A stretch of 64,000 bases of DNA from Candidatus Buchananbacteria bacterium (GCA_903888345.1 CAISTG010000004.1:6393-70392); one strand, 5' to 3'; positions 6,546 through 31,866 are shown, counted from the stretch's first letter. The notes: generated from the letters alone by a model not told the origin. Translations and numbers: made by a program.

Positions 6546-7106
6546 ATGGATAATAAAACTTACAACAAAGAAGATTTCACGACTGAGATATTACCAAAAG
6601 GGGAATATCAGAATTGTATTTTTACTAATTGTAATTTTCATGGTTGTGATTTATCTAATTACAAATTTTTTGATTCGGAATTTACTGGTTGTGATTTAAG
6701 CTTAGTAAAAACGGCACAAACAACTTTAGCTAATGTGGCTTTTAAGGGCAGTAAATTGTTGGGTTGGCGCTTTGAAAATTGCGCCGAGTTTGGCTTAGCG
6801 GTCAGCTTCGATAATTGCTTGTTAGATCACTCTTCATTTTTTAAAACTAAATTGAAAAAATCAATCTTTAAAGATTCGCAATTGCATGAAGTAGATTTTA
6901 CTGATTGTGATTTGACTGAGGCGGTTTTTAATAATTGTGATTTGGCCAAAGCGATTTTTCGCTCTACGAATTTAGAAAAAGCAGATTTACGTTCATCATA
7001 TAATTACGCAATTGATCCGGAAAACAACAAGATCAAGAAAGCCAAATTTTCTTTGGCGGGAGTTCCGGGGTTATTGGTTAAGTATGATCTAAAGATTGAA
7101 ATATAA
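6546..7106 (+). CDS. Pentapeptide-repeat protein (Qnr/MfpA-like)
   Basis: About 186 aa of tandem A(D/N)LXX-type pentapeptides (CDLSN, CDLSL, CDLTE, ADLRS). The start was set at the ATG at 6546 immediately after the methyltransferase stop, and the listed ORF start at 6441 overlaps the upstream gene. Confidence 0.75.
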   Translation: MDNKTYNKEDFTTEILPKGEYQNCIFTNCNFHGCDLSNYKFFDSEFTGCDLSLVKTAQTTLANVAFKGSKLLGWRFENCAEFGLAVSFDNCLLDHSSFFKTKLKKSIFKDSQLHEVDFTDCDLTEAVFNNCDLAKAIFRSTNLEKADLRSSYNYAIDPENNKIKKAKFSLAGVPGLLVKYDLKIEI

Positions 7107-7738: not shown

Positions 7739-8857
7739 TTACTGGAGTTCGATCTCCACCAACCGGCGATTAATGTCGTACTTGTACTGCTCCTGGCATT
7801 TCTTGGTCAGGGCGTCTTGGAAGGCCAGAACGTCTTCCTTGGTGGTCAGTGAAGCGAGCGTCCATAGCACCCAGCGGTAGGGGCTATCGCTAGGGAGATT
7901 GCGATCTTCGGTCAGAAACTCCAGCTGGCCAAACGGATCAAGCTGTAGCAACTTCACATAGATGGCGTCGCAGAGTTCTCCACGCTCGAGATACTCTTCG
8001 TGCGCGTGGCATTCAAGATTCTCTGCCACTTCGATGAATTCCCGGAGCGTCTTCGTATCTGTGATTTGCTCATGTGTCTTGACGACACGCAGAGTTGCTG
8101 CGCGCACCAATGCGTAGGCAGCAATTTCCCATTTCATGGAGCTTTTGTCCCAGCCAAAGGGATGCTCAGAGAGCTCCTTTTTTAATACATTGATTTCGGC
8201 TAGTGTCGTCTGTTCCGCGATTTCCTTGGAGAAATCATCGAAGAGCATCGCGGTCACGGTGAGGTGGCTTTTCATGGACTTGATGACAGCTCGCCTGGTG
8301 ACGAAGTTCGGTGCCGATTTGACGTAGGCGTTCGACGCTTCATCACTGAAGCCATCGCGTCCGACCAGTTGCCAGGCGCGGTGGAATTCGTCATAGCTGG
8401 AAAAGTTGTCGGTATAGACGACCGTGCGACGCGCCCAATATTCGGGCAGCCGTTTGCTGGTCCAGTACTTTTCCAGGTCGTCCAGCCGCAGGTAGTAGAG
8501 GCCGTAGGAAACGTTTTTTGACGCTAGAGCGTCGAACAGATTGGCGCCCTTGGTTTCGCAGAGGGCTCGAGCGGTTTCTACCCACTCTTTTTCTTCTGCT
8601 TTCTTGGCGCGTCTTTCTTCTTCATTCTGACGCGCCGCTTCCTGTTGGCGCAAGGCCCAGGCGGCCAACTCTTGTGCTGCGGCTTCCTTTTTGTCCTTTT
8701 TGGCCTGTTCGTACTCGTCTTGCTTCCGCTTTTTTTCTTTGATTTCAGAAAGGGAACATTTGACAATAATCGCGGCGATAGCAGCAACTACGACAAGGAT
8801 TCCCAGAAAAAACAGACAGATTCCAGTCATGGAACTCATAATCTTTCTCCATGCCAC
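7739..8857 (-). CDS. Hypothetical membrane-anchored protein (GC-rich cassette I1)
   Basis: The ORF opens with GTG at 8857. A better start is the ATG at 8839, which has a GGAG SD, giving MSSMTGICLFF with a TM helix. A KE-rich coiled-coil segment follows, then about 230 aa with no recognisable domain. Codon third positions are strongly C/G, unlike the neighbouring genes. Confidence 0.6.
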   Translation of the reverse strand: MAWRKIMSSMTGICLFFLGILVVVAAIAAIIVKCSLSEIKEKKRKQDEYEQAKKDKKEAAAQELAAWALRQQEAARQNEEERRAKKAEEKEWVETARALCETKGANLFDALASKNVSYGLYYLRLDDLEKYWTSKRLPEYWARRTVVYTDNFSSYDEFHRAWQLVGRDGFSDEASNAYVKSAPNFVTRRAVIKSMKSHLTVTAMLFDDFSKEIAEQTTLAEINVLKKELSEHPFGWDKSSMKWEIAAYALVRAATLRVVKTHEQITDTKTLREFIEVAENLECHAHEEYLERGELCDAIYVKLLQLDPFGQLEFLTEDRNLPSDSPYRWVLWTLASLTTKEDVLAFQDALTKKCQEQYKYDINRRLVEIELQ

Positions 8858-8929
8858 CTTGCGATGGCTCTTGTTGTAAGGTCCGACAACACCCAGAATT
8901 GACCCTTGCCAATCTTAGTGTAATATCTA

Positions 8930-8958
8930 ATTATAGCATATAGTGTTAAATTTGTCAA
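8930..8958 (-). promoter_or_regulatory. Consensus sigma70 promoter (TTGACA-17-TATAAT) for the 7739..8857 gene
   Basis: Reverse complement reads cTTGACAaatttaacactatatgcTATAAT. Confidence 0.6.
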
Positions 8959-9158
8959 GTAGTTATCAACAGCCTATTAATTTTTATGTTTAAATTTAGC
9001 TAAAATATTTATCGTATATACTTGATTATCGCTTAAATTAAAGCAAATCTTGGCGCGTGACCGAATTATCAATATTTCAGTGCGAAGTTTTTATTTGAGG
9101 ATAAATTTCGGTTTTAGTCAAATTAGGAGTATAATTAAAGTAATTAATACCTTAATTT

Positions 9159-16977: not shown

Positions 16978-17006
16978 AGTATAACATACAAAATATAATT
17001 TGTCAA
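16978..17006 (-). promoter_or_regulatory. Consensus sigma70 promoter (TTGACA-17-TATACT) for the 16502..16849 gene
   Basis: Reverse complement reads TTGACAaattatattttgtatgtTATACT. Confidence 0.6.
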
Positions 17007-17121
17007 TTATTTAATGGGTTAATCACTGTTAAATTAGGGAAATATATTTAATCAATTTAATAATATTTATCTAAATTTAAACAAAATATCAATTATTATT
17101 ACTAAATAGTGGATAAAGTAC

Positions 17122-17150
17122 TTGACAAAATATGATAGTTGTGCTATACT
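17122..17150 (+). promoter_or_regulatory. Consensus sigma70 promoter (TTGACA-17-TATACT) for the 17245..18066 gene
   Basis: Reads cTTGACAaaatatgatagttgtgcTATACTg. Confidence 0.6.
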
Positions 17151-17244
17151 GATATATTACACTAAGTTTGGCAAAAGGCCAGGCTAGGGTGTAGGGACCT
17201 ACAAAAACAGGGAATAATCCCTAAAACAAAAGAAAGGGCATACT

Positions 17245-18066
17245 ATGCCTGACAACGACACGAACGCCAACGTCAACGTTACCGAAACCGCAGCGACTCA
17301 GAAGGCTTCATGGAGCGAGCGGAGCAGGGCCTTTTTCCGCAAGATCAACCTGAGGAAGGTTGCTCCCATTGCCATGTTCGCCAGCTTCACCGTTTTGCTC
17401 CTCGTCGCTCTGATCCTGATCGGTATGCAGGCCGCCCAGGAAGTGAACTCAGTCAAAGCGACGGCCAATCAGGCGCTGTCTTTGGCCGCAACCACCTCCG
17501 ATCGGGTCGACACCGCCGAACAGGGGATTGCCCTACTCGCCGGAGAAAATCAGGCGCAGAATCAGCGCTTGACCGCCGTGGAACAAGCGACAGTGGTCGC
17601 GAGCGAAACTGCCACTGCTGCTGTCGCCAAAGCGGACACAGCCAATTCGCGGTTGAACGCGAAGAAGAAGGCCGATAACCAGTTGCACAAGCAGCATGTC
17701 GCCTACATCCGCGGTGCCAATCCTGACAGTCCGATTGCCAAGAAGAGCAACGCTGAAATCGAGGCGTTGCTCAATGATGGCATCTGGAACATCGAAGGCG
17801 ATATTCAGACCGAGTTTGATCGGCTGATCGCTCTCGCTGCTGCCCAGGCCAAGCAGACGGCCGACAGTGTCGTGGAGACTGCCAAGCTGACCGCCACCAA
17901 GTTGGAAGCGGTTGACGTGACGGCGACAAAGGCGCTTGCTGCCGGCGACACCGCAGTCTCGGGGATCAAAGTGATCGCCGATCAGCCTAACAAGCTTTTT
18001 GGCAAGTCGGTCAACGGCGACTCCAAGAAGACTCTCCAAGAGCTGGTGGCCACTTACTCCAAGTAA
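17245..18066 (+). CDS. Membrane-anchored Ala/Thr-rich coiled-coil protein (GC-rich cassette I3)
   Basis: 273 aa with one TM helix (MFASFTVLLLVALILIGM) followed by an Ala-rich helical ectodomain. About 55% GC. The antisense ORFs at 17310..17678 and 17533..18039 are GC artefacts. Confidence 0.65.
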   Translation: MPDNDTNANVNVTETAATQKASWSERSRAFFRKINLRKVAPIAMFASFTVLLLVALILIGMQAAQEVNSVKATANQALSLAATTSDRVDTAEQGIALLAGENQAQNQRLTAVEQATVVASETATAAVAKADTANSRLNAKKKADNQLHKQHVAYIRGANPDSPIAKKSNAEIEALLNDGIWNIEGDIQTEFDRLIALAAAQAKQTADSVVETAKLTATKLEAVDVTATKALAAGDTAVSGIKVIADQPNKLFGKSVNGDSKKTLQELVATYSK

Positions 18067-28054: not shown

Positions 28055-28088
28055 GAAAAGCCTCTCGGGAAACCGGGAGGCTTTTTAA
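28055..28088. terminator. Bidirectional terminator shared by clpP(+) and the GC-rich operon(-)
   Basis: GCCTCTCGG-gaaa-CCGGGAGGC hairpin with AAAAG upstream and TTTTT downstream. Confidence 0.75.
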
Positions 28089-28099
28089 AGGTGCGAAAA

Positions 28100-28690
28100 T
28101 TAAAGGTGCTGCTCAATAATTGCTAACACAGCGGCAATTTTTTCATTCAAGTCGGAAATGCTAGTTATTACTTGTTGCTGGGGATGAACCGACCAAGCGG
28201 CTTTAATTTTATGTTCGATTGTTTGAGCTTCAACTAAAGACTCAAAACGCTCAGCATTATTGCCTCGGCCGTAAAGGTGCGGTGCGGTTACAGCCAATGA
28301 CTCCAGATGAATAACTGTCGTGTAGTTGGCGATAGCGTCCGCTTCATTAATATTATTACGGCGATAGAATTCAGCGGCGCCACCCGGAGTGTAGGCCGCT
28401 CCGTCTAAAATTCCGCGGTCGCAGACTAGCAAGGTTGCTCCTCGTTGCTCGGCCATCAATTGATACGAGTGTTCAAGGGAGGTTTGTAGGACAGTAACAG
28501 AGGCTTGAAAATCATGTTGCCAATCCTCACTCCAGGCTAGGTCACGACCCGGAACCGGGAAACCACCCGAGAGTAAAATTGTTGCTGCTTCTGGTACGAC
28601 TAATACTTGGCAGGGAAAATTCAGTTTAATAGCTTCTAGTGCGGAAGTCTTTCCGCCACAAGGGCCGCCGGTTAAAACGATTTTTTTCAT
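28100..28690 (-). CDS. P-loop NTPase, AAA_28/NadR-kinase-like (cassette I4, gene 6)
   Basis: Walker A is VLTGGPCGGKTS and Walker B is LLVCDRG. 196 aa with an AAAGGAG SD. GC-rich codons. Confidence 0.6.
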   Translation of the reverse strand: MKKIVLTGGPCGGKTSALEAIKLNFPCQVLVVPEAATILLSGGFPVPGRDLAWSEDWQHDFQASVTVLQTSLEHSYQLMAEQRGATLLVCDRGILDGAAYTPGGAAEFYRRNNINEADAIANYTTVIHLESLAVTAPHLYGRGNNAERFESLVEAQTIEHKIKAAWSVHPQQQVITSISDLNEKIAAVLAIIEQHL

Positions 28691-28824
28691 GATCGTGCTC
28701 CTTTCGTTGGGATTTGAGTAAGAAGTTAAAGAGCAGTTTAGTGACTTGCTCAGGTCAGTTAGAATTAACTTAGGAGATCAAGGACTTTCTTCCAGTTCTT
28801 GCCCTTCAGTAGGCCAGTGCGCGA

Positions 28825-29454
28825 TTACCAATTGCCCGGGTATTTCTCTTTGCCCTCAGGCGTCGTCAGGTACTTCTCATCAATCACCTCCAGTATCTGC
28901 TTATCGACGTTAACTAGACCGATGCGATTGGTGCTGGTGCACAACACCTTAACCTCATCGCCGCCAACACCGCGGAAGCAGTCGAAGGCCGCCGATGCCG
29001 GGTGCTGGTGGTGATCAGTGTCCGTCACCACCGCCACCCTTTTGACACCAACCTTGATTGCCAGTAGTGCAATGATCGTGCCCAGCGGCATCTCCTCCTT
29101 AGCATACTTAACTTTGTTGGCCTGTGCCTGCCCGGATGGCGGAACCATCAAGTCAGTCAGGACGACGTCGAAGTTGGGGACGATTGTGAAGTCTTTGGTG
29201 GCCTGATTTTTGGCTAGCTGGTAAGCTGCCTTTTTGTTTGCCTCCTCTTCGGTAGCGCGCCAGGGATTGAAATCACCGAACAGCTCTTTCATCTTGGCGT
29301 CAATGGCGTCAAAGTCAGTCACCGGCAGTAGTGCTGCCTGCGCTTCGTCATAGGTGCCGACGACCGTCAAGTTGTGATCCTTGAGAGTAACTTCGGCAGC
29401 GGTACGATGAGCGGCACTGTCATCAAACACGAGGATGTTGAGTTTCGTTGTCAT
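28825..29454 (-). CDS. CheY/flavodoxin-like alpha/beta-fold protein, divergent REC-like (cassette I4, gene 5)
   Basis: Has ILVFDD (acidic pair), a possible phospho-acceptor context (DFDAIDAKM or FDVVLTDLMVP) and a later RVAVVTDTDHHQH strand. The long inserts are not canonical for a receiver domain. AAAGGAAG SD. Confidence 0.35.
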   Translation of the reverse strand: MTTKLNILVFDDSAAHRTAAEVTLKDHNLTVVGTYDEAQAALLPVTDFDAIDAKMKELFGDFNPWRATEEEANKKAAYQLAKNQATKDFTIVPNFDVVLTDLMVPPSGQAQANKVKYAKEEMPLGTIIALLAIKVGVKRVAVVTDTDHHQHPASAAFDCFRGVGGDEVKVLCTSTNRIGLVNVDKQILEVIDEKYLTTPEGKEKYPGNW

Positions 29455-29513
29455 GATGTTCTTCCTTTTTGCTTCGGTGGTTGGTTGTTTCTCGTCGACA
29501 AGTTGGAATAATA

Positions 29514-29753
29514 CTAGATGCGGCGCGGGTCTTTCAAATCTCTGATTTCACTGGCATCAGGAACGTGCTTCTTTCGTTTCACTTCCAATTCTTTCATGCT
29601 ATTAACAGTTCTTTGAAAGTTTCGGGCCATTGTTTCCAAATCACCTAAGTGGGTCGACATCCACAAGTCATAATGCGCGCGACAAATGTCGCCGTTGCCT
29701 TGGCAAGTGCAATTGTCTTGTGCGATTCCATCCCAGGTATGCGATTTCGCCAT
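29514..29753 (-). CDS. Small CTC-motif Cys protein, paralog 3 (cassette I4, gene 4)
   Basis: The start was set at the MAKSHTWDG methionine, 7 nt after an AAGGAG SD, and the longer listed ORF overlaps the upstream gene. N-terminal motif NCTCQGNGDICRAH. Confidence 0.5.
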   Translation of the reverse strand: MAKSHTWDGIAQDNCTCQGNGDICRAHYDLWMSTHLGDLETMARNFQRTVNSMKELEVKRKKHVPDASEIRDLKDPRRI

Positions 29754-29764
29754 GATGTTCTCCT

Positions 29765-30280
29765 TTAGAGGTCGAGTAGAATTCGCTCTAGTAAGCCGCC
29801 ACACTCGTGACTCAGCTTAGGATCATGTGGTAATTGTTCCAGTAGTTCTTGCAGTAATTTTCGTTCGCTCGAACTGGTGAAATTGCGATCGCGTTTGATC
29901 GCACCAACAATCACCGACCGTACAAACAGTCGTAGATCGGCATCGCGGCGTATTGCTTCGGCCAGAATCAGTGGATTCAGTTTGGCGACTTCGGCAAAGC
30001 CAACCGGCAGATCACGACCCATAAAACTCGAGCGCAATCCCAGACCGTAGTTCAGGTTACTCAAAACGCACTCGTCAATTCCGCCGGCAAAGGGTCCATC
30101 AAAGATCTGCGGCGGAATAAAACCGCCATAGCCATCCTGATGCAATTTTTGCTCTTTAGTGTAATACATAAACACCTGAAATTCATCCGAACTTTTAAAT
30201 TTGCTGCGGATCAGCTCCTGAAATTTTTTCAGCACTTCAGCAATCATTTTTTCTTTGATTGTCGTCAGAAATTCTTCCAT
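29765..30280 (-). CDS. Hypothetical protein, 171 aa (cassette I4, gene 3)
   Basis: AAGGAG SD 7 nt upstream. No recognisable motif. Confidence 0.5.
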   Translation of the reverse strand: MEEFLTTIKEKMIAEVLKKFQELIRSKFKSSDEFQVFMYYTKEQKLHQDGYGGFIPPQIFDGPFAGGIDECVLSNLNYGLGLRSSFMGRDLPVGFAEVAKLNPLILAEAIRRDADLRLFVRSVIVGAIKRDRNFTSSSERKLLQELLEQLPHDPKLSHECGGLLERILLDL

Positions 30281-30403
30281 TTCGCATCTCCTTTCTCGGT
30301 TAATTGTAAGGTGCAGTACTCGATTTCGCTGTTTTCAGCTCATCAGTCCAGGCACACACCTGGAAATCGTCGAGCAGTTTTAGAACTTGCTCAGGTTTAA
30401 TTC

Positions 30404-30631
30404 TCAACTTAGCCCCATTACCTCAAGCAGCTCCTTTTCTGGTAAGTTGCGGCAAGACTCACACCAAGTTTCGATCGATTGACGCGTGGTCGATACTCCT
30501 TGACCGCAGCCACAACAAGGCTTGATAACTGGCTCGTTGGCTAGCACATCGATTTTCTTTAACCTTTCTGATGTGCAGTTCAGGCACGCAACTTCGATAT
30601 CATCGCCGCAAGTGCAAGTATGTTTCTTCAT
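30404..30631 (-). CDS. Small CTC-motif Cys-rich protein, paralog 2 (cassette I4, gene 2)
   Basis: 75 aa with 9 Cys, N-terminal HTCTCGDDIEVACLNC plus CCGCG and CESC. Its start overlaps the upstream gene's stop (ATGA). Confidence 0.55.
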   Translation of the reverse strand: MKKHTCTCGDDIEVACLNCTSERLKKIDVLANEPVIKPCCGCGQGVSTTRQSIETWCESCRNLPEKELLEVMGLS

Positions 30632-30876
30632 GGTGCTTCTCCTTGTTTTTGTTTGTTTTGCTCAATCTGATCTAGTCTTTCCTGTAGGGCTGCCTGATTG
30701 TGCTGTTTAGCAGTTTCATGAAGTGTGATTACCGCTTTAAAGAGGCGCTGTTCTTCAATGACGGCATCCCAAAGTTTGCTTTGAAGTCTCGCCTTTTGTT
30801 CGCGGAAGCATTTCGGGCAGCAGTCGTGCGGGTATTTGCAGGTGCAGTCGGCATTTATCGTGGTTTCGTTACGCAT
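30628..30876 (-). CDS. Small CTC-motif Cys protein, paralog 1 (cassette I4, gene 1)
   Basis: 82 aa with DCTCKYPHDCCPKC followed by a Q/E-rich helix. Confidence 0.55.
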   Translation of the reverse strand: MRNETTINADCTCKYPHDCCPKCFREQKARLQSKLWDAVIEEQRLFKAVITLHETAKQHNQAALQERLDQIEQNKQKQGEAP

Positions 30877-30920
30877 GCTAGTCCTCGCTTTCTTGGTTGG
30901 GTTGTAAGGTTCTAAGGTTC

Positions 30921-30958
30921 AAAAAAACCGGTTGCTTTTTTAGCAATCGGTTTTTTTG
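30921..30958 (-). terminator. Leader hairpin/attenuator between the I4 promoter and its first gene
   Basis: ACCGATTGC-taaaaaa-GCAACCGGT followed by TTTTTTT on the minus strand, and symmetric on the plus strand. Confidence 0.45.
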
Positions 30959-31036
30959 AACCACCAAACAAAAGTTGGTTTGATTTGTATTTGGTTTTGT
31001 TGGTTTTGTTTAGTCATAGTTTTTCTATCTATAAGT

Positions 31037-31065
31037 AGTGTATCATAGCTAAAATATTTTGTCAA
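31037..31065 (-). promoter_or_regulatory. Sigma70-like promoter (TTGACA-17-TACACT) for the I4 operon
   Basis: Reverse complement reads cTTGACAaaatattttagctatgaTACACT. Confidence 0.5.
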
Positions 31066-31344: not shown

Positions 31345-31866
31345 ATGTCATCAGAAACTTTTGAAAATCAGAATCCCTTGGAAATCGAGCGTAAGTTTTT
31401 AATTCGTCAGCTGCCGACGGGATTAGGGGAGCAACAAGGAGAAAGAATTGAACAGGGCTATCTGGCCATCGATGCCAATTTGACCGAAGTACGTTTGCGA
31501 CATCGAGGCGAAAAATATTATCTAACCGTCAAGGGTGCCGGTATGGTTATTCGTAACGAATGGGAGATGGAGATTCCTGAAAATCAGTTTAATAAATTTT
31601 GGCCGGCGACAATTGGCCGGCGGTTAACAAAAACTCGCTATGAAATACCTTATGAAAATGTTATGATTGAAATAGATATTTATGCTGACAAGTTAAAGGG
31701 ATTAGTAACGGCTGAAGTTGAATTTAAATCGGAAGCAGAGATGGAAAGATTTGTGCCACCGGCCTGGTTAGGTGAGGAGGTAACGACTAATAATGATTAT
31801 AGAAACAAAAATTTAATTACTTTAAATGAGCTCGAAATTATAAAATTATTGCAGAGTAAGTTATGA
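31345..31866 (+). CDS. CYTH-domain protein (CyaB/thiamine-triphosphatase-like triphosphate tunnel metalloenzyme)
   Basis: Has the EIERKFLI (ExExK) motif, RxR, TVKG and the AEVEF...PPAWLGEEVT signature. Native AT-rich codons. Confidence 0.75.
   Translation: MSSETFENQNPLEIERKFLIRQLPTGLGEQQGERIEQGYLAIDANLTEVRLRHRGEKYYLTVKGAGMVIRNEWEMEIPENQFNKFWPATIGRRLTKTRYEIPYENVMIEIDIYADKLKGLVTAEVEFKSEAEMERFVPPAWLGEEVTTNNDYRNKNLITLNELEIIKLLQSKL

Follow-up and report, generated by a model that had tools for sequence, protein, structure and literature searches.

Hammerhead clusters and the locus under study

Perreault et al. 2011 (PMC3088659) described clustered hammerhead ribozymes of bacterial prophages that flank single genes of varying identity, reported in vitro cleavage of polycistronic RNA for three bacterial clusters, and proposed that such ribozymes cut long transcripts into gene-length mRNAs; candidates were accepted if they had an A15.1-U16.1 pair, an H17 other than G and no mispair next to the core. 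Here, we describe a further setting for such ribozymes, found in a 64,000-nucleotide (nt) stretch of DNA from Candidatus Buchananbacteria bacterium (GCA_903888345.1 CAISTG010000004.1:6393-70392; hereafter the window, numbered from its first letter), a member of the Patescibacteria or candidate phyla radiation (CPR). Between positions 28100 and 31065, its minus strand carries a promoter and six genes, here called g1 to g6, which a first-pass annotation had read as one coherent system. We consider it probable that the locus is instead a ribozyme-punctuated mosaic operon with portable RNA modules, and not a six-gene machine.

As in the clusters of 2011, the family of loci to which the window belongs has several same-strand hammerheads between the genes of polycistronic units, with varied genes on their flanks; the ribozyme core is canonical, and the window subtype is abundant in viral contigs. 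Unlike those clusters, the window locus lies in a Patescibacteria chromosome, in a syntenic position among housekeeping neighbours (clpP, a cca-like gene, CYTH and AAA_28) and without a recognizable prophage, and its ribozyme is fused to a pseudoknot box upstream and to a short box in the untranslated region (UTR) downstream. That bacterial hammerheads form clusters is known; what is new is the Patescibacteria chromosomal setting, the fusion of ribozyme, pseudoknot box and UTR box, and a series of intact, deleted and re-assorted junctions. Literature text searches combining taxon and ribozyme terms returned nothing linking hammerheads with Patescibacteria or CPR. With intact and deleted ribozyme junctions and varied cargo, this one syntenic locus amounts to a natural comparison series, which makes both mRNA processing and cassette exchange directly testable.

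All six co-directional genes are present as minus-strand open reading frames (ORFs) between 28100 and 30876:

30628-30876, minus strand: g1, 82 aa
30404-30631, minus strand: g2, 75 aa, ATGA overlap with g1
29765-30280, minus strand: g3, 171 aa
29514-29753, minus strand: g4, 79 aa counted from ATG
28825-29454, minus strand: g5, 209 aa
28100-28690, minus strand: g6, 196 aa, convergent with clpP

The reported ATGA overlap of g1 and g2 is there, as is an AGGAG-type Shine-Dalgarno sequence ahead of each of the six genes. The reported gap range of 8 to 134 nt is right at its upper end, while the smallest gap is 11 nt and not 8 (g2/g3, g3/g4, g4/g5 and g5/g6: 123, 11, 59 and 134 nt). The two long gaps had been taken for empty spacers and turned out to hold RNA elements and a gene remnant; together, a hammerhead, two pseudoknot boxes and a nonsense codon in g5 account for their length. 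For annotation, this means that "long intergenic gaps" in such operons can conceal ribozymes and the remains of genes. The g2/g3 junction carries a module in the order H-type pseudoknot box, type III hammerhead, UTR box, and the g5/g6 junction carries the same module with its ribozyme core deleted:

30372-30397, minus strand: pseudoknot box A, CCUGAGCAAGUUCUAAAACUGCUC plus the two preceding P1 nucleotides, 8 nt after the g2 stop codon
30321-30369, minus strand: type III hammerhead ribozyme (RF00008, 23.1 bits; covariance-model match with flanks, 30299-30375)
30304-30312, minus strand: second UTR box ACCTTACAA, after the hammerhead and ahead of the g3 Shine-Dalgarno sequence
28765-28824, minus strand: g5 C-terminal remnant SRTGLLKGKNWKKVLDLLS with the ancestral TAA at 28765-28767, matching the family consensus
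28731-28756, minus strand: pseudoknot box B, CCUGAGCAAGUCACUAAACUGCUC plus P1 nucleotides, 10 nt after the ancestral g5 stop
28691-28730, minus strand: scar of the lost hammerhead, with the UTR tail and the g6 Shine-Dalgarno sequence remaining

A type III hammerhead ribozyme between g2 and g3

Hammerhead_3 was the top Rfam match in the whole region. The RNA consists of an open stem III of 4 bp (CGAU/AUCG), a 7-bp stem I hairpin (UCCAGGU/GCCUGGA), the core CUGAUGA, and stem II (GCUG-AAAA-CAGC) followed by GAAA. All core positions are canonical (C3-A9, G12-A14, the A15.1-U16.1 pair, and H17, which is U30365), and the pairs adjoining the core are U-A (1.1-2.1) and G-C (10.1-11.1), without a mispair. 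From its sequence, this hammerhead is predicted to cleave after U30365, that is, between 30365 and 30364.

Several searches single out this site. The pattern CUGAUGAG-N-CGAAA occurs once in the window (0.03 expected), and the same plain pattern gave 15 matches in 8 of 90 loci, always on the strand of the g5 homologue and all with three helices. A covariance model found 24 hammerhead copies in 10 of 82 loci and scored the window copy at 65 bits; in a model from which the window had been left out, this was the only site in the 64 kb (56.7 bits, E = 7.8e-12). Among the 24 other copies, pairing holds in 96.6% of cells, with double changes in 13 of 16 pairs; slid controls reach 31-42%. Taken together, both pairing analyses give 96.6-97.4% paired cells, double changes in 12-13 of 16 pairs and slid controls of at most 50%. 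A good illustration is provided by the related locus L013, in which stem I reads CUCGAG/CUCGAG where the window has UCCAGG/CCUGGA, and stem II UCC/GGA where the window has CUG/CAG.

The number of copies varies between loci, with three hammerheads in L013, two in L218, four in L084 and ten in L027, compared to one intact and one deleted in the window. The L027 copies score 36-48.3 bits against RF00008; relative to the Rfam seed, stem III is short (4 bp) and the loops are of other lengths. Most copies have a structured element, either a hairpin or a pseudoknot, abutting their 5′ side; of the 31 copies examined, 14 fold at z < -1.5. In viral contigs, the subtype is represented by 105 model matches in 81 loci; a pattern with fixed spacing proved too strict there and gave one match. 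None of the six cassette proteins is encoded in 120 viral loci picked for the hammerhead pattern.

On the 3′ side, ACCTTACAA follows the hammerheads of the window, L013 and L217. Related forms of this UTR box are CTTTACAA in L091 and UCUUUGAAA in other loci, and the tail of the covariance model reads uUUUaAAA. We also observed that this box (ACCUUACAA, replaced by UCUUUGAAA elsewhere) is located 10-15 nt ahead of the Shine-Dalgarno sequence belonging to the gene after the hammerhead, and that it precedes g1 too.

A 35-aa ORF with a TTG start (30300-30407, minus strand) spans the same site. It was rejected as a gene, L013 having no ORF there; its tblastn "homologues" are explained by the conservation of the box and ribozyme RNA, and it is probably not a gene. 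As a separate observation, L027 has its ten hammerheads on the same strand within about 5 kb (L027:3137-7962), among small genes that include a g5 homologue. The same locus has a twister-P1-like match at 6592-6664 with 54.8 bits, the gathering score being 67.2.

The pseudoknot box

The 24-nt box CCUGAGCA-N-G-N5-AAACUGCUC occurs twice in the window (28731-28754 and 30372-30395), with zero occurrences expected by chance. It is not confined to this lineage. Metagenomic contigs with the box number at least 120, and so do viral ones (L219-L338 and L339 onward); the metagenomic contigs carry up to 5 copies each, none of which is followed by a hammerhead. Its fusion with a hammerhead occurs in the present Patescibacteria lineage and otherwise in 2 of 155 viral boxes only.

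Two helices can be traced in these copies. In all of 129 distinct copies (100%), P1 has a pair between the nucleotide directly preceding the box and the first variable position behind CANG; the second pair forms in 97% and the third in 71%, compared to 25-63% in slid controls. For P2, GAGCA can pair with UGCUC; in viral variants, box position 7 is invariably U, facing G at position 21 in 100 cases and A in 26, leaving 1 of 127 unpaired. By this pairing pattern, the box is a small H-type pseudoknot on the sense strand. A lineage-specific upstream hairpin of the ribozyme, which we had considered, is ruled out by the metagenome scan, and a promoter or DNA repeat is unlikely because the box shows compensatory changes and G.U pairs on the sense strand.

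The box is usually found either 5-15 nt past a stop codon or 3-7 nt ahead of a tRNA. In 46 of 82 cases, its start is 5-14 nt past the stop codon of the ORF before it (for the Patescibacteria copies, 8-10 nt), and it lies 20-40 nt ahead of the next start codon; the position ahead of a tRNA gene was seen in several cases. No family of Rfam 15 overlaps it, and literature searches by sequence words returned no account of it, although such searches could miss a name. This is a very common small pseudoknot of phages and metagenomes, outside Rfam 15, which may be an undescribed class of RNA.

Small H-type pseudoknots with an A-rich third loop include the preQ1-I riboswitches and 3′-end-stabilizing triplex elements. 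The box resembles them in its P1 of 2-3 bp, P2 of 5-6 bp and A-rich linker; both of its helices are backed by covariation. It differs from them in sequence, which is unrelated to any Rfam 15 family, and in location, being found after stop codons and before ribozyme or tRNA processing sites and not in the 5′ leaders of metabolic genes. Another point of comparison is given by the theta ribozymes, which resemble the hepatitis delta virus (HDV) ribozyme and lie beside phage tRNAs (PMC10879173). Both are small structured phage RNAs adjoining tRNA genes, a location that ties both to the formation of RNA ends. In contrast with the theta ribozymes, the box lies upstream of the tRNA, not downstream, and with about 30 nt it is too small for an HDV-like fold; no cleavage is implied.

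Two box-carrying contigs have ribozyme matches of their own: a Pistol match at L238:1255-1329 (51 bits; gathering score 34.5) and a match resembling a type I hammerhead at L225:2375-2430 (30.7 bits; gathering score 34).

A deleted ribozyme and a truncated g5

The g2/g3 and g5/g6 gaps have a 25-nt direct repeat in common. Compared to L091:816-891, from the 90%-identical relative in which g5 is followed by an intact box and hammerhead, about 45 nt are absent from the window, and with them stem I, the core and stem II.

The gene ahead of this scar is damaged as well. An in-frame TAA (28825-28827) cuts g5 off at codon 210, while its relatives run about 20 residues further; in P0125 (229 aa), a relative with 90% identity, Glu occupies this site. 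The 19 in-frame codons after the TAA still read SRTGLLKGKNWKKVLDLLS, the conserved C-terminal helix of the family, so that about half of the 134-nt g5/g6 gap is the tail of g5. Since the same 209-aa ORF is found on contigs from several independent samples, the stop is real and fixed in the population. An alternative genetic code is ruled out, as TAA ends clpP and other genes. Judged from the sequence, either a nonsense mutation arose here recently or the truncation is tolerated; programmed readthrough is conceivable.

Related loci and the probable mosaic architecture of the operon

The following loci were informative for the history of the cassette (HH, hammerhead; box, pseudoknot box):

L217 (clpP 89% and TrmB 79% identical to the window): opposite-strand cca-like gene, promoter, 25-codon ORF, terminator-like hairpin, UTR box, g1, box-HH, CYTH, AAA_28 (3-nt gap), convergent clpP
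L218: CYTH, g1, HH, 111-aa gene, HH, AAA_28
L013: small Cys ORF, box-HH, g5, box-HH, g6 homologue, CYTH, HH, further gene
L092: g3, g2, box-HH, g5
L091: g4, g5, box-HH, unrelated gene
L094/L095: 122-aa gene, HH, g5

Between the gene of the CCA enzyme (PolyA_pol and HD domains) and clpP, the backbone conserved in this lineage consists of the promoter and leader, g1, a hammerhead, CYTH and AAA_28. The g6 homologue of the closest syntenic relatives stands beside CYTH and clpP without g2-g5, and, by this comparison of sequences, g2-g5 are variable cargo between g1 and g6. The junctions between blocks coincide with RNA modules in the related loci. In the window itself, the CYTH gene (31345-31866) is on the other side of the cassette and on the opposite strand, with a 4-nt overlap with the start of the cca-like gene, whereas in L217 (3161-3739) and L013 (6550-7086) it is co-directional with and adjacent to the AAA_28 gene; its displacement indicates a local rearrangement.

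The idea of a foreign-looking cassette is thus only partly sustained: g2-g5 act as variable imported cargo, while g1 and g6 belong to the resident backbone. A conserved gene order was not found, the order of six genes occurring in no other genome. Nor did the coherent six-gene system hold up, given that g5 is mostly solitary, that g6 belongs to a family of wide distribution and that the parts are combined differently from genome to genome. In most of 79 genome loci the g5 homologue stands alone among housekeeping genes, and a g5 and a g6 homologue occur together in 1 of the 79. The ten genes flanking the cassette belong to housekeeping-type Pfam families. No phage hallmark was found with Pfam in these ten genes or with PHROGs in the six proteins, the sole significant PHROG being a thymidylate-kinase family matched by g6.

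Note that several records of metagenome-assembled genomes with a Patescibacteria-type g5 and synteny (L013, L022, L024, L034 and others) bear the titles "uncultured Gammaproteobacteria" or "Bdellovibrionales", probably because the bins were mislabelled.

A processing model and its alternatives

If the hammerhead works as predicted, the primary transcript from the promoter would self-cleave after U30365. The upstream product would be an mRNA for g1 and g2 with the pseudoknot, 10 further nt and a 2′,3′-cyclic phosphate at its 3′ end, and the downstream product a g3-g4-g5-g6 mRNA that carries, in this order, a 5′-OH, the folded ribozyme, the UTR box and the Shine-Dalgarno sequence. The two mRNA halves could then differ in stability and translation. 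Such processing would match the proposal of gene-length mRNAs made for the prophage clusters (PMC3088659). The modules might double as seams for the exchange of cassettes between genomes, a role that we infer because junctions coincide with modules across the related loci.

Several points weigh against this model. The window copy reaches 23.1 bits against an Rfam gathering score of 48.5, its stem III is merely 4 bp long, and its cleavage triplet is AUU, not the common GUC. Fast hammerhead cleavage at cellular Mg2+ needs tertiary contacts between loops. The seed copies of the first covariance model were picked by a structural filter, which inflates the pairing statistics; this bias is offset by the 16 plain-pattern matches and the later non-seed matches, which are independent of it. 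The stop codon in g5 and the dead second module suggest that the locus is partly decaying, and with partial decay RNA processing may no longer matter at the window locus. Finally, the roles of the modules in mRNA stability and recombination are ones that we only infer.

An extended version of the model, which we offer tentatively and regard as rather unlikely, sees the module as portable mRNA punctuation. The box, as a new class of RNA element, would cap the processed 3′ end, the ribozyme would make the cut and, once folded, form with the UTR box a protected 5′-OH leader for the gene that follows, Patescibacteria would have adopted this phage device in a chromosomal operon, and the CYTH, AAA_28 and CCA/HD proteins may act on RNA ends. 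CYTH proteins are triphosphate-tunnel enzymes. The pseudoknot is present in hundreds or more phage and metagenome contigs, abutting ribozyme or RNase P sites; a structured element 5′ of the cut in many hammerhead copies suggests a 3′-end-capping role, and the box adjoining tRNA 5′ ends, which are RNase P sites, fits this idea.

Both the ribozyme and the boxes might instead be inert leftovers of the phage or other mobile DNA that brought in g2-g5, in which case the operon would be one unprocessed transcript. The abundance of the hammerhead subtype and the box in viral contigs would agree with this, as would the destruction of one of the two modules, the truncation of g5 and the elevated GC content of the cargo, above all of g5 (0.66 at third codon positions, GC3). 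We still judge it unlikely: the hammerhead that survives has lost neither a core nucleotide nor a helix, its syntenic copies in L217, L218, L091, L092 and L013 show compensatory changes that indicate purifying selection on the RNA, and there is the lack of phage hallmarks in the Pfam and PHROG searches described above. A related thought is that the modules act chiefly at the DNA level, as mobile regulatory cassettes that drive recombination and shuffling, with RNA cleavage being secondary. PeSL elements of T4-type phages are mobile regulatory cassettes that promote shuffling, and here, too, different genes flank near-identical modules in related genomes, with the box, ribozyme core and UTR box offering 9-24 nt of identical sequence. 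What speaks against it are the sense-strand G.U pairs, which are tolerated both by the hammerhead stems and by box positions 7/21 (in the latter, 100 U.G versus 26 U-A), and the helices held by compensatory changes; these features point to an RNA fold, and not DNA identity, as the target of selection. In addition, no recombinase is associated with the modules. This explanation, too, we therefore think improbable.

Returning to the cassette as a whole, the six genes had been proposed to form a dedicated defence, anti-defence or signalling system in which the NTPase, the receiver and three zinc-ribbon paralogues act together. Tight co-directional packing between a single promoter and terminator, the enrichment of the Cys motif in the cassette and the recurrence of the g5-HH-g6 adjacency in L013 would fit such a system. 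We nevertheless consider it very unlikely, as PADLOC-DB 2.0 gave no significant match (the only hit, IetA with E = 0.023, covers 31 residues of the g6 P-loop), no other genome has the six-gene block, a g6 homologue is present at 1 of 79 g5 loci while the syntenic g6 pairs with CYTH, g5 has its nonsense codon, and the paralogy of the mini-proteins is not significant. As to the RNA, two flanking hammerheads could in principle excise g3-g4-g5 RNA for ligation into a circle. The ancestral pair of same-strand ribozymes, 1.6 kb apart, would have generated compatible 5′-OH and 2′,3′-cyclic-phosphate ends, and circles of this kind were raised as a possibility for clustered hammerheads by Perreault et al. 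(PMC3088659), who did not detect them in 2011. With the second ribozyme core deleted in the window genome and no RNA ligase gene noticed in the neighbourhood, we hold this to be exceedingly unlikely.

The receiver-fold protein g5 and the P-loop protein g6

With these genes, three uncharacterized protein families of ultra-small bacteria (those of g1, g3 and g5) are defined. The g5 family comprises more than 230 homologues, of which every taxon-named one is from Patescibacteria, and it has no Pfam family. A single-sequence genome scan for g5 homologues gave no match, while an alignment-based scan succeeded; searches of PDB sequences with g5 returned nothing useful. A model predicted from 58 sequences (predicted local distance difference test, 88.6) has a (beta-alpha)5 CheY-like fold. 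D11, D12, D101 and T144 are invariant across these 58 sequences, placing DD after beta1, Asp after beta3 and Thr after beta4. After beta5 the family has C-T-N and lacks the conserved Lys, and g5 scores 14.2 bits against PF00072, under the cut-off of 30.2. The earlier description of g5 as receiver- or flavodoxin-like is therefore upheld as to the receiver fold and the DD...D pocket, and its label of non-canonical is borne out by the absent Lys and the low Pfam score: g5 is a divergent receiver-fold protein of a Patescibacteria-wide family. Like the receiver domains of PF00072, it keeps the acidic pocket, the phospho-acceptor Asp and the Thr at the expected positions. It differs from them in a helical insertion of about 45 residues, in a conserved HHxHP motif after beta4, in a C-terminal helical extension (cut off in the window copy), and in the lack of both an output domain and, in the loci inspected, an adjacent kinase gene.

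For g6, the proposed AAA_28-type P-loop protein was confirmed by a full-length match to PF13521 (E = 4.5e-19; 69.7 bits, cut-off 27). Its Walker A motif reads GGPCGGKT, and G8, G9, P10, G13 and K14 are invariant. The family has more than 2,000 homologues from Patescibacteria, Poribacteria, Bacteroidota and Alphaproteobacteria. Weak similarity to thymidylate kinases was seen with PHROGs (1e-5) and with the family profile against PDB (E 0.013-0.02), while a PDB search with the g6 sequence gave nothing useful. We conclude that g6 is a resident backbone gene for a protein with a small P-loop, kinase-like fold. With NMP-kinase-like P-loop proteins, such as the NadR kinase domain and thymidylate kinases, it has the Walker A motif and the AAA_28 match in common; it has no solved close relative among them, and its family, unlike them, adjoins a CYTH gene in the nearest relatives.

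Cysteine-rich mini-proteins and the orphan g3

The motif reported for the three mini-proteins is real, C-x-C-x5-7-C-x2-[CH] being present in g1, g2 and g4; of its 4 occurrences in six-frame ORFs of at least 40 aa in the window, 3 are these genes. Their paralogy, in contrast, was not borne out. Pairwise BLASTP gave E values of 0.046, 19 and 2.9, and the g1-family profile reached E = 0.0019 at 14.6% probability against g4 and E = 0.041 against the g2 family, so that common ancestry is not demonstrated by these sequences. All three are probably zinc-binding mini-proteins.

The g1 family, whose gene comes first in the backbone, has the conserved motif CTCxxPxDCCPxC...LQxxLW, and its members in L217 (37% identity) and L218 (49%) both keep all five Cys. 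The g2 protein has nine Cys (CxCx7CxxC...CCxC...WCxxC), 8 of which are kept in the 44%-identical homologue of L092. On this evidence from sequence conservation, g1 and g2 are separate, real families, and g2 is variable cargo that travels with the downstream box and hammerhead. The g4 protein carries CTCQGNGDICRAH and was found in this species-level lineage only, with its last 11 aa being identical in L091. For g3, 12 relatives were detectable among 1.84 billion representatives; its predicted model is confident and all-helical, no structural neighbour of the model was found, and a scan of viral contigs for g3 gave no match. It, too, belongs to the variable cargo. Scans of the six cassette proteins with Pfam, PADLOC, PHROGs and NCBIfam yielded a significant match for g6 only.

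Promoter, leader and terminator

The remaining regulatory features frame the operon on both sides:

31037-31065, minus strand: sigma-70-type promoter TTGACA-17-TACACT with TG extension (10/12 match)
30940-31017, minus strand: candidate 25-codon leader ORF MTKQNQQNQIQIKPTFVWWFKKTDC, its stop codon falling within the leader-hairpin loop
30916-30962, minus strand: leader hairpin with 21-nt arms, 95% complementary (z = -5.56)
30902-30910, minus strand: 5′-UTR box ACCTTACAA, about 25 nt upstream of the g1 start
28056-28085, between g6 and clpP: bidirectional terminator hairpin with 13-nt arms, 92% complementary

In these respects the first-pass annotation was accurate. Its promoter, read from 31065 to 31037, is the top promoter-like site upstream of the cassette, its leader hairpin with a U-tract is very stable (z = -5.6), and its terminator common to the operon and clpP is the hairpin at 28056-28085. 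An operon-like unit is also supported by L217, in which promoter, leader and terminator-like hairpin are kept; upstream of the g1 homologue, the promoter hexamers and their spacing are identical. The leader hairpin has an inner stem of CCGAUUGCU/AGCAACCGG followed by U7, with an A-tract on its flank. Hairpin and U7 are kept in L217, where the 3′ arm differs in sequence yet pairs. This is the shape of a bidirectional intrinsic terminator and makes the hairpin a candidate attenuator by its sequence. At the equivalent place (~2735-2812), L217 also has a 25-codon ORF that ends in DC and a stop codon inside the hairpin loop. The putative leader ORF of the window contains tandem Trp codons (FVWWF) and has no clear Shine-Dalgarno sequence upstream; it may encode an attenuation leader peptide. 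No convincing antiterminator was found in the window leader, the comparison comprising two genomes. Within the operon, a promoter-like TTGAAA-18-TATTAT (10/12; 29508-29537, minus strand) at the end of g4 and upstream of g5 could be an internal promoter.

The cassette is GC-rich as reported, with 0.46-0.54 compared to 0.414 for the window: g1-g4 and g6 have 0.46-0.48, g5 has 0.54, and the flanking genes 0.385-0.45. Two further 1-kb bins, 8001-9000 and 17001-18000, reach 0.49-0.51, so that GC-rich patches of the window are not confined to the cassette.

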